From Candidatus Hadarchaeales archaeon (GTDB lineage: Archaea; Hadarchaeota; Hadarchaeia; Hadarchaeales; JAWBSP01), in the NCBI GenBank assembly GCA_038842485.1, contig JAWBSP010000014.1:1-31345 (forward strand): 31,345 nt of DNA, written 5' to 3'. The notes beneath the pieces are model-generated. The model saw only the letters and a list, made by a program, of their open reading frames with translations. It was not told the DNA's origin and did no database searches. A program made the position numbers and the translations under genes. The stretch's first letter is position 1. Every line of letters starts with the position of its first letter. Positions 19,146 through 20,783 of the stretch are shown piece by piece.

Positions 19146-19180
19146 CTGAGCTTCGGGTCTGAGAAAGGTTCGGCATCCCC
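19146..19180 (+). other. 5' strand of the pre-16S processing stem with a BHB motif
   Basis: Pairs with 20691-20725: 14-bp inner helix, AAA bulge, 4-bp TGAG/CTCA helix, ATG bulge, and a 13/14-paired outer helix. Confidence 0.85.
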
Positions 19181-19199
19181 GTCTACTTGCGGCCACCCA

Positions 19200-20684
19200 G
19201 ATCCGGTTGATTCTGCCGGAGGCCACTGCTATCGGGATCCGACTAAGCCATGCGAGTCATAGGGCCCGGGGCAACCCGGGTACCTGGCGCACGGCTCAGT
19301 AACACGTCGTCAACCTACCTTGGGGAGGGGGATAACCTCGGGAAACTGAGGACAATACCCCATAGGCTGGAGAGGCTGGAAGGCGCTCCAGCCCAAAGGG
19401 ACCGAAAGGTCCGCCCCAAGATGGGACGGCGGCCTATCAGGTAGTTGGTGGTGTAACGGACCACCAAGCCTACGACGGGTACGGGCGATGGGAGTCGGAG
19501 CCCGGAGATGGGCACTGAGACAAGGGCCCAGGCCCTACGGGGCGCAGCAGGCGCGAAACCTTCGCAATGGGCGAAAGCCCGACGAGGGGATCCCGAGTCC
19601 CGCTGGTCTCTGACCGGCGGGTTTTCCCGAGTCTAAAAAGCTCGGGGAATAAGGGGTGGGCAAGGCTGGTGCCAGCCGCCGCGGTAATACCAGCACCCCG
19701 AGTGGTGGCCACGTTTATTGGGCCTAAAGCGCTCGTAGCCGGGCCTGCAAGTCCCTCGTGAAATCGGGCCGCCTAACGGTCCGGCGTGCGGGGGATACTG
19801 CTGGCCTTGGGGCCGGGGGACGCCGAGGGTATTCCCGGGGTAGCGGTGAAATGCGTTAATCCCGGGAGGACCACCGGTGGCGAAGGCGCTCGGCGACAAC
19901 GGTCCCGACGGTGAGGGGCGAAGGCTGGGGGAGCGAACGGGATTAGATACCCCGGTAGTCCCAGCAGTAAAGGATGCGGGCCAGGCCTTGGGTGACCGTT
20001 GGGGGTCACTCAGGACCGGAGGGAAGCCGTTAAGCCCGCCGCCTGGGAAGTACGGCCGCAAGGCTGAAACTTAAAGAAATTGACGGGGGAGCACCACAAG
20101 GGGTGGGACCTGCGGTTTAATCGGATTCAACGCCGAACAACTCACCAGGGGAGACAGCTGGATGAAGGCCGAGCTAAAGACTCTGCCGGACTAGCTGAGA
20201 GGTGGTGCATGGCCGTCGTCAGCTCGTGCCGTGAGGTGTCCTGTTAAGTCAGGCAACGAGCGAGACCCTCGCCCCTAGTTGCCACGGCTTCAACCGGGCA
20301 CTCTAGGGGGACCGCTGGCGCTAAGCCAGAGGAAGGAGAGGGCGACGGTAGGTCGGTATGCCCCGAAACCCCTGGGCTACACGCGGGTCACAATGCGTGG
20401 GACAATGGGATGCGACCCCGTAAGGGGAAGCGAATCCCCTAAACCCACGCTTAGTTCGGATCGAGGGCTGAAACTCGCCCTCGTGAAGGTGGAATCCCTA
20501 GTAATCGCGGGCCACTACCCCGCGGTGAATAAGTCCCTGCTCCTTGTACACACCGCCCGTCAAACCATCCAAGCTGGGTTTGGGTGAGGGAGACTCTCCT
20601 TGGGTCTCTCGAACCCAAGCTCGGTGAGGAGGGTTAAGTCGTAACAAGGTAGCCGTAGGGGAACCTGCGGCTCGATCACCTCCT
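19200..20684 (+). rRNA. rrs: 16S rRNA (archaeal)
   Basis: TCCGGTTGAT start, GTGCCAGCCGCCGCGGTAA, GGATTAGATACCC, GTACACACCGCCCGT, and anti-SD GATCACCTCCT. Ends are approximate. Confidence 0.98.
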
Positions 20685-20710
20685 GAGTCTGGGGATGCCG
20701 AACCCTCAAT

Positions 20711-20783
20711 GGGCCCGTAGCTCAGCTGGTAGAGCGTTGGCTTTGCAAGCCAGAGGTCCCGGGTTCGAGTCCCGGCGGGTCCA
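20711..20783 (+). tRNA. tRNA-Ala(TGC)
   Basis: Acceptor GGGCCCG/CGGGTCC with G3-U70, anticodon loop TTTGCAA, T loop TTCGAGT; located in the rRNA spacer. Confidence 0.97.

Follow-up and report, generated by a model that had tools for sequence, protein, structure and literature searches.

The 16S rRNA processing stems described for Haloferax volcanii, Sulfolobus acidocaldarius, Pyrococcus furiosus and Methanococcus maripaludis share a common design. The 16S leader and trailer form a long stem that carries two 3-nt bulges set 4 bp apart (a bulge–helix–bulge, BHB), the splicing endonuclease EndA cuts this stem and the ligase RtcB circularises the product, as far as the available text of these papers describes it (PMC7038931, PMC10351888, PMC10515664, PMC7714728). 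In these organisms the stem does not include the spacer tRNA, whose maturation the M. maripaludis paper assigns to RNase P and RNase Z. For H. volcanii, Juttner et al. infer that processing of the spacer tRNA comes after that of the 16S BHB and is rate-limited (PMC7038931); ligation of the leader to the spacer is treated in extracts of PMC7038931 and PMC10351888. Here we describe the corresponding region of a 31,345-nt stretch of DNA from a Candidatus Hadarchaeales archaeon (contig JAWBSP010000014.1; this whole stretch is referred to as the window), in which the 3′ bulge of the BHB includes the first nucleotide (+1) of the spacer tRNA-Ala(UGC) and the whole outer helix is made with tRNA sequence. 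As in the archaea above, EndA and RtcB are encoded and the inner helix covaries. We are highly confident that the structure is real and has been selected, and it is best explained as the 16S processing stem of an archaeal rRNA operon so compacted that the BHB abuts the spacer tRNA.

Genes in the window were placed with Rfam and ARAGORN (Table 1). Only 26 nt separate the 3′ end of the 16S rRNA from the start of the tRNA, which has the cloverleaf, UGC anticodon and G3-U70 pair of a tRNA-Ala (G-U at 3:70 in 18/18 loci of the alignment described below). According to ARAGORN it is the sole UGC alanine isoacceptor in this 89%-complete assembly, the other alanine isoacceptors being GGC and CGC. The arrangement is that of a canonical BHB: two 3-nt bulges lie on opposite strands with a 4-bp helix between them and a longer helix on either side, and the strand order is outer-central-bulge-inner on the 5′ side and inner-central-bulge-outer on the 3′ side. 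The inner helix is an exact reverse complement over 14 bp (19167–19180 with 20691–20704), lengthened to 15 bp by a G-U pair (19181:20690). In the outer helix 13/14 positions are paired, as 12 Watson–Crick pairs and one G-U (U19158 with G20713, which is G3 of the tRNA), the remaining position being a U-U mismatch (19153/20718). The 3′ strand of this helix is tRNA, not spacer, and the 3′ bulge is composed of two spacer bases followed by G+1. In the ARMAN-2 EndA complex, the bulge comprises nucleotides 13–15 and is cut between 14 and 15 (PMC12397907, in the part of the paper available). Cleavage after the second bulge nucleotide would thus fall at 19165^19166 and 20710^20711, the latter immediately before tRNA +1 (G20711).

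When BHBs were scored as the number of paired positions in the inner plus outer helices, the real leader gave a score of 28. The highest score among 500 leader shuffles was 17 (mean 9.7), and the second-best site in the real sequence scored 9. The original prediction, made from the window alone, had described this stem and its cut at tRNA +1, and each of its BHB coordinates and pairings was confirmed by sequence reading, ARAGORN and Rfam.

The geometry is conserved across the order. From 65 species genomes, 45 of which had a match to the 16S 5′ end, we recovered 42 leader loci (34 distinct), and the outer/central/bulge motif was present in 41 of them. Both flanks could be read at 24 loci, leaving out those cut by contig ends, the trailer-only locus L031 and the incomplete named loci L042 and L071. 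A canonical BHB with its predicted cut at +1 was found at 15/24 of these loci, or 15/18 of those where the tRNA is linked, covering 7/9 genera (g1, g6, g7, g9, g10, g13 and g18, together with one contig of unknown genus in a bacterial-labelled metagenome-assembled genome, MAG) and all four families with data; an initial set of relatives had kept the geometry in 10/11 cases. Two of the 15 (in G016 and G009) fit a −1 register equally well. The distance from the central helix to G+1 is always exactly 2 nt, whatever the identity of the two bases (AT, AA, GA, TG or TT). Since all four families with data hold the canonical form, the order probably inherited it from its common ancestor. The remaining 9/24 loci comprise two with a degenerate BHB (genus g2), one with a mismatch in the central helix (G063) and six where the tRNA is not linked (genus g8); these are considered below.

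Two further loci were seen in this survey. The contig L105 is filed in a MAG titled Actinomycetota bacterium and carries an rRNA operon of the window's order with the same BHB and tRNA geometry; it is probably mis-binned. Genus g5 provided no locus with both flanks. Its trailer L031 (G027, family f5) has TCTC ATT ahead of G+1, and combining this with g5 leaders from other genomes suggests a −1 register, in which G1 would be paired and one extra base left on the tRNA.

The 18 linked loci were aligned to the structure as specified (alignment A1). Overall, 94.7% of the 712 cells were paired, compared to 29–49% when the partners were slid by 1–3 columns. Thirteen pairs vary on both sides: ten of the 14 in the inner helix and one each in the central helix, the outer helix and an additional helix, H3, described below. 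The observed values were not attained by any of 500 shuffles on four of five measures. The central helix is CGAG/CTCG in most genera and changes on both sides to TGAG/CTCA in the window's genus. Compensatory change is therefore found for the processing stem overall, through the inner and central helices, and is minimal for the outer helix alone. The outer pairs with tRNA nt 2–7 are nonetheless complete in every locus (108/108 cells). Outside the window's genus the outer helix consists of these 6 bp plus ∼5 bp between leader GAGCU and tRNA nt 9–13, with U8 bulged, and 93.3% of the cells of this second segment are paired. In the window's genus the register is shifted by one base, giving an anti-tRNA helix of 14–16 bp. 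Thus the proposal of an anti-tRNA sequence in the leader holds for the order as a whole, and the 14-bp form in which it was first described is confined to one genus.

The leader contains two elements that the original prediction had missed. In helix H3, a segment further upstream pairs with the 3′ acceptor strand of the tRNA, the discriminator and 1–6 bases of trailer, over 8–14 bp (91.9% of cells paired in the 18 loci). In two g6 genomes the extension into non-tRNA trailer differs in sequence yet still pairs, at 13/13 and 14/14 positions. As the leader holds complements of both acceptor strands, it can also form a hairpin, P1, which closely reproduces the acceptor stem of tRNA-Ala. P1 is paired in 143/144 cells, alongside 126/126 for the tRNA acceptor stem itself, and in 5/18 genomes its counterpart of the 3:70 pair is also a G-U. 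The leader mimics the acceptor stem alone, and no tRNA-like element or tRNA pseudogene was recognised in it; an Rfam search of the leader at a permissive E-value gave no tRNA or other family, the only match being a chance-level C/D box in the window (E = 1.9), with none in L015. The sequences permit two mutually exclusive predicted states: a clamp, with the leader paired to both tRNA strands, or a resolved state in which P1 and the tRNA acceptor stem both form.

An AT-rich, TATA-like stretch (ATATTTTATAG, 19062–19072) lies ∼130 nt upstream of the 16S rRNA. If this is a promoter, the leader would span only ∼100 nt, almost all of which would be engaged in the pairings described.

Table 1. Positions of genes and pairing elements around the 16S rRNA–tRNA-Ala junction of the window
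Feature	Coordinates	Strand	Remarks
Leader strand of helix H3	19133–19141	+	Pairs with 20776–20784 at 8/9 positions
Leader hairpin P1, 5′ strand	19135–19143	+	Partner 19152–19160
BHB outer helix, leader strand ('anti-tRNA')	19146–19159	+	Pairs with tRNA nt 2–15 (20712–20725)
Leader hairpin P1, 3′ strand (alternative pairing)	19152–19160	+	Overlaps the anti-tRNA strand
Central 4-bp BHB helix, 5′ strand TGAG	19160–19163	+	
5′ bulge AAA	19164–19166	+	Predicted EndA cut 19165^19166
Inner processing-stem helix, 5′ strand	19167–19181	+	
16S rRNA	19200–20684	+	Rfam RF01959, 1492 bits
Inner helix, 3′ strand	20690–20704	+	
Central helix, 3′ strand CTCA	20705–20708	+	
3′ bulge ATG	20709–20711	+	Third base is tRNA G+1; predicted EndA cut 20710^20711
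tRNA-Ala(UGC), G3-U70	20711–20783	+	ARAGORN and Rfam (72.6 bits), both starting at 20711
tRNA-Ala nt 66–73 plus 20784	20776–20783 plus 20784	+	Form H3 with the leader
23S rRNA	20890–23950		Placed by Rfam/ARAGORN

Folding was predicted with the nearest-neighbour model of ViennaRNA. When the window's leader and trailer were folded together with the entire tRNA, the minimum-energy structure retained the full BHB, and neither the acceptor arm nor the D arm of the tRNA was formed. In 10/10 genomes, from seven genera, a forced outer helix was more stable than a forced acceptor stem, by 2.0–12.7 kcal/mol at 37°C and by 2.2–8.3 kcal/mol at 70°C. The suggestion that the tRNA is kept unfolded while tethered to the leader therefore agrees with the predictions for every genome folded. 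For the products of the predicted cut in the window, the leader–tRNA dimer is more stable than the separate monomers by 5.2 kcal/mol at 70°C; with only ∼5 kcal/mol holding the two together, separation is plausible. The conformational switch of the original prediction gains from these energies, which favour the clamp, and is complicated by P1, which fits the sequences equally well.

The assembly (0.94 Mb in 27 contigs) encodes the enzymes that such a pathway would use. A single EndA of 171 aa carries both Pfam domains and is closest, among solved structures, to the enzymes of Methanopyrus kandleri and Methanocaldococcus jannaschii; RtcB was matched at 580 bits. An archaeal-type RNase P RNA is also encoded (226 bits), so this is not a Nanoarchaeum-like lineage lacking RNase P. 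PIN_5, which we take to be the family of the protein-only enzyme HARP, had no match in the 89%-complete genome. These searches answer the question, raised with the original prediction, of which tRNA 5′-end enzymes are encoded here. In the available part of their paper, Kaneta et al. describe Hadesarchaea α4 EndAs with an extra L3 loop, which they tie to more disrupted tRNA genes (PMC5829648).

We compared the locus with other archaea. A public scan for tRNA-Ala genes 15–45 nt from a 16S 3′ end gave at least 119 stretches, 80 of those listed having flanks, and samples of two other archaeal phyla gave 60 loci, 53 with both 16S ends. Within the two-phyla samples, 36 operons with a downstream tRNA-Ala had a strong BHB, defined as a score of 20 or more. 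None of the 36 has its predicted cut at +1; the cuts lie 10–129 nt upstream of the tRNA. In the sample of one phylum, where most loci are mutually similar and the genomes are near 2 Mb, all 24 operons are predicted to be cut at −23 or −24, with an outer helix that stops 3–7 nt short of the tRNA (L174–L203). In the other 12 operons the cut is at −10 to −129. Loci titled Methanolliviera or Methanoliparum (L034, L082, L103, L223, L226 and L227) have the cut at −10 and an outer helix that runs into tRNA nt 1–5 or 1–8; at L206 and L207 the cut is at −15 and the outer helix ends exactly at +1; and loci of the Methanofastidiosum type have it at −17 or −20. The Methanolliviera/Methanoliparum loci, L206 and L207 thus resemble the Hadarchaeales in that the stem reaches the tRNA, but their bulge does not include +1, and the predicted cut would leave a short 5′ leader for RNase P. 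A bulge containing +1 is confined to this order among the matches listed and the two phyla sampled, and abutment of stem and tRNA seems, from the operons compared, to be common in compact euryarchaeal operons.

We found no description of such abutment in other euryarchaeal operons. A full-text search, which leaves out most subscription papers including the older spacer comparisons, likewise gave no description of a BHB overlapping a spacer tRNA, and the phrase 'acceptor stem' was absent from the archaeal rRNA-processing papers in that search. The available portions of PMC10515664, PMC7714728, PMC7038931, PMC10351888, PMC5829648, PMC12397907, PMC9014305, PMC6125680 and 10.64898/2026.03.23.713588 contain no mention of the overlap. 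Among the findings that the original prediction had named as counting against it was a leader complement that is not conserved; the motif is present in 41/42 leaders. Wide documentation of the same geometry would, by that account, have removed its novelty only; the cut at +1 was seen in 0/36 operons from the two other phyla.

Related uses of the BHB are known from tRNA genes. In the split and permuted tRNAs of Nanoarchaeum, Caldivirga and Thermofilum, a BHB is formed by outside sequence together with tRNA, and EndA sets a tRNA boundary. There the boundary falls within the body of the tRNA, whose halves are then joined, whereas here it would coincide with the mature 5′ end, and an rRNA leader lying 1.5 kb upstream provides the partner strand. 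Nanoarchaeum equitans makes tRNA 5′ ends free of RNase P by leaderless transcription. The likeness is a tRNA 5′ end made without RNase P; the differences are that RNase P RNA is present here and that the proposed agent is EndA rather than transcription initiation. A counterpart for the order of events is the coordinated-maturation model for H. volcanii, which in the available text places the 16S BHB step before maturation of the spacer tRNA and the 23S rRNA (PMC7038931). The order proposed below is the same, but that text offers no structural basis in the tRNA, whereas here direct pairing of the leader with each acceptor strand would build the order into the RNA itself.

On balance we favour a model in which the tRNA stays clamped by the leader up to the point at which EndA cleaves the two bulges, so that a single event frees the pre-16S rRNA and makes the tRNA 5′ end, after which the leader refolds into P1 and the tRNA folds. 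In the intact precursor the leader would hold both acceptor strands; with these clamped, we propose that the cloverleaf cannot form and that there is no substrate for RNase P or tRNase Z. EndA would then recognise the BHB and cut at the two bonds given above. This would release a 1545-nt pre-16S rRNA (19166–20710) for circularisation by RtcB, leave G20711 as a 5′-OH end and convert the clamp from an intramolecular to an intermolecular pairing. The freed leader fragment may refold into P1, and the tRNA would then fold. What we infer is that these bonds are cut in vivo, together with the sequence of steps, the strand exchange and the fate of the 5′-OH end. Given the cut, direct use of the 5′-OH end and its re-ligation to the leader with recutting by RNase P at the same bond appear about equally probable, each a little short of an even chance, and some other fate is unlikely. 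The leader ligated to G+1 is predicted to remain misfolded in 10/10 genomes, which is awkward for re-ligation; on the other side, no Clp1-type 5′ kinase was found above the cut-off in the genome, the best hit being a P-loop match of 18.9 bits. These two results pull in opposite directions. A stronger version of the model holds that in this order the sole tRNA-Ala(UGC) owes its mature 5′ end to EndA rather than to RNase P, that this tRNA works with a 5′-OH or is phosphorylated by a kinase yet to be found, and that the leader is an antisense clamp whose mimic of the acceptor stem drives release by strand exchange. We regard this version as possible but doubtful.

Several observations weigh against the clamp. 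Apart from the misfolded ligation product and the lack of a kinase match above the cut-off, the ViennaRNA energies omit the tertiary structure of the tRNA, base modifications and proteins, and the leader folded alone is of unexceptional stability (z = −0.55). Five of the six outer-helix pairs with tRNA nt 2–7 are invariant and the sixth is G-C in nine loci, G-U in eight and A-U in one; the only change on both sides in this helix affects one pair in a single genome. As the tRNA strand is fixed by tRNA function, covariation in the outer helix gives little independent proof of pairing. P1 and the acceptor stem fit the sequences as well as the clamp does, so that sequence alone cannot separate the clamp from two hairpins. 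In genus g2 the BHB is degenerate (2/2 loci), and at the G063 locus (L161, genus g10) the central helix has a mismatch, the inner-helix strands are non-complementary and the trailer is like that of another family; this contig is probably chimeric across the conserved 16S rRNA, and is a warning for work on leader–trailer covariation in MAGs.

A further difficulty comes from genus g8. At all six of its loci (L018, L019, L157, L160, L162 and L163) the tRNA-Ala is not adjacent and no BHB scores above 12. A T-run directly follows the 16S inner-helix strand, and the tRNA-Ala(UGC) is found 1.3–1.7 kb downstream behind a different upstream sequence. The leader nevertheless keeps the outer/central/bulge motif and hairpin P1 unchanged despite the broken operon, so the element must have another or an additional function, and its retention is left unexplained both by the clamp and by the original prediction. 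A BHB formed in trans between the g8 leader and the relocated tRNA-Ala was considered and rejected, there being no CTCG-type central strand before that tRNA. As a separate observation on the g8 tRNA-Ala loci (L165–L168 and L170), the genes at L167 and L168 are 88–89 nt long, with an apparent intron beside the anticodon, and were miscalled by ARAGORN.

An alternative that we consider unlikely is that RNase P, not EndA, cuts 20710^20711, with the tRNA folding on transcription while the anti-acceptor strand is held in P1, and with the BHB either a relic of compaction or needed for the 5′ cut only. The RNase P RNA reported above for this genome is kept in 54/65 genomes of the order and in 24/25 of the high-quality ones, so RNase P could make the same cut. 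P1, which is transcribed ∼1.5 kb ahead of the tRNA, is fully compatible with the sequences, as is the acceptor stem, and the lost or degraded BHBs of g8 and g2 indicate that the BHB is dispensable in the order. This account does not sit well with the exact 3-nt/4-bp/3-nt geometry and 2-nt spacing, kept at 15/18 linked loci though the bases vary, or with the change on both sides of the central helix. It would also leave aside the leader complementarity that runs past the acceptor mimic into tRNA nt 9–13/15 and the predicted energies, which favour the clamp in all genomes folded; moreover, a cut by RNase P leaves a 3′-OH, which RtcB could not use to circularise the pre-16S rRNA. We place lower still the possibility that the functional unit is the leader hairpin P1 together with P2, a small hairpin carried by most genera, acting in the 5′ spacer as a tRNA-like signal for processing or binding or being a decayed copy of tRNA-Ala, with complementarity to the real tRNA a by-product of the sequence they share. 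Near-complete pairing of P1, its G-U at the 3:70-equivalent position in some genomes, the presence of the element in 41/42 leaders and its persistence in g8 without an adjacent tRNA are what such a unit would predict. Mimicry of the acceptor stem leaves unexplained, however, the pairing of GAGCU with tRNA nt 9–13, the 13–14-bp extensions of H3 into non-tRNA trailer of differing sequence in two g6 genomes and a conserved 3-nt bulge that ends on G+1, and the Rfam search of the leader recovered neither a tRNA nor another family.

The conserved 16S rRNA is a place where MAG contigs may be wrongly joined, as the mismatched leader and trailer of G063 suggest, and a chance match or the joining of leader and trailer from different organisms might in principle produce a stem of this kind. 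For the window this is scarcely credible and is effectively refuted: the inner helix is perfect over 14 bp, shuffled leaders fall far below the real score, the same geometry recurs at 15 loci and contigs of run X1, a hot-spring metagenome that may itself be the source sample, match both flanks with 0 differences. Of 24 sequencing runs, all in the form of contigs, four (X1, X2, X6 and X23) were compared with the window over 19050–20900. No 19165/20711 or 20710/19166 joint was present in these four, a result that we count neither way, as contigs cannot show rare forms; the joints that were seen lie inside the 16S rRNA and have short sides. Contigs of X2 and X6 run uncut across 19165/19166.

Two observations concern the rRNA genes themselves. 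The flanks of the 23S rRNA in the window (20785–20889 and 23951–24100) contain no long canonical BHB stem; the best candidate (20881–20887/23955–23961) scores 9 and has a weak outer helix, and a motif ATGCRGC found ∼5–45 nt past the tRNA, which is conserved among relatives, may supply the true 5′ strand of a 23S stem. At L152 (G017) and L153 (G007) the 16S rRNA carries an insertion of ∼0.9 kb at the same position, after GGATTAGAT (alignment A1 columns ∼958–1916). The insertion holds coding-looking sequence and is probably an rRNA intron with an open reading frame of the homing-endonuclease type.

A direct test would need no more than one enzyme and a substrate of ∼200 nt, and natural controls exist in the genera where linkage is lost and in the lineages with the cut at −10, −15 or −24. 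RNase P is generally held to form tRNA 5′ ends in nearly all organisms. A splicing endonuclease cutting at +1 would, if true, be a new route to a tRNA 5′ end, in an organism that still has RNase P. Clamping of the tRNA by the leader would provide a physical mechanism for the long-standing inference that euryarchaeal spacer-tRNA processing waits for 16S excision, and would amount to a hard-wired checkpoint linking tRNA supply to excision of the 16S rRNA.

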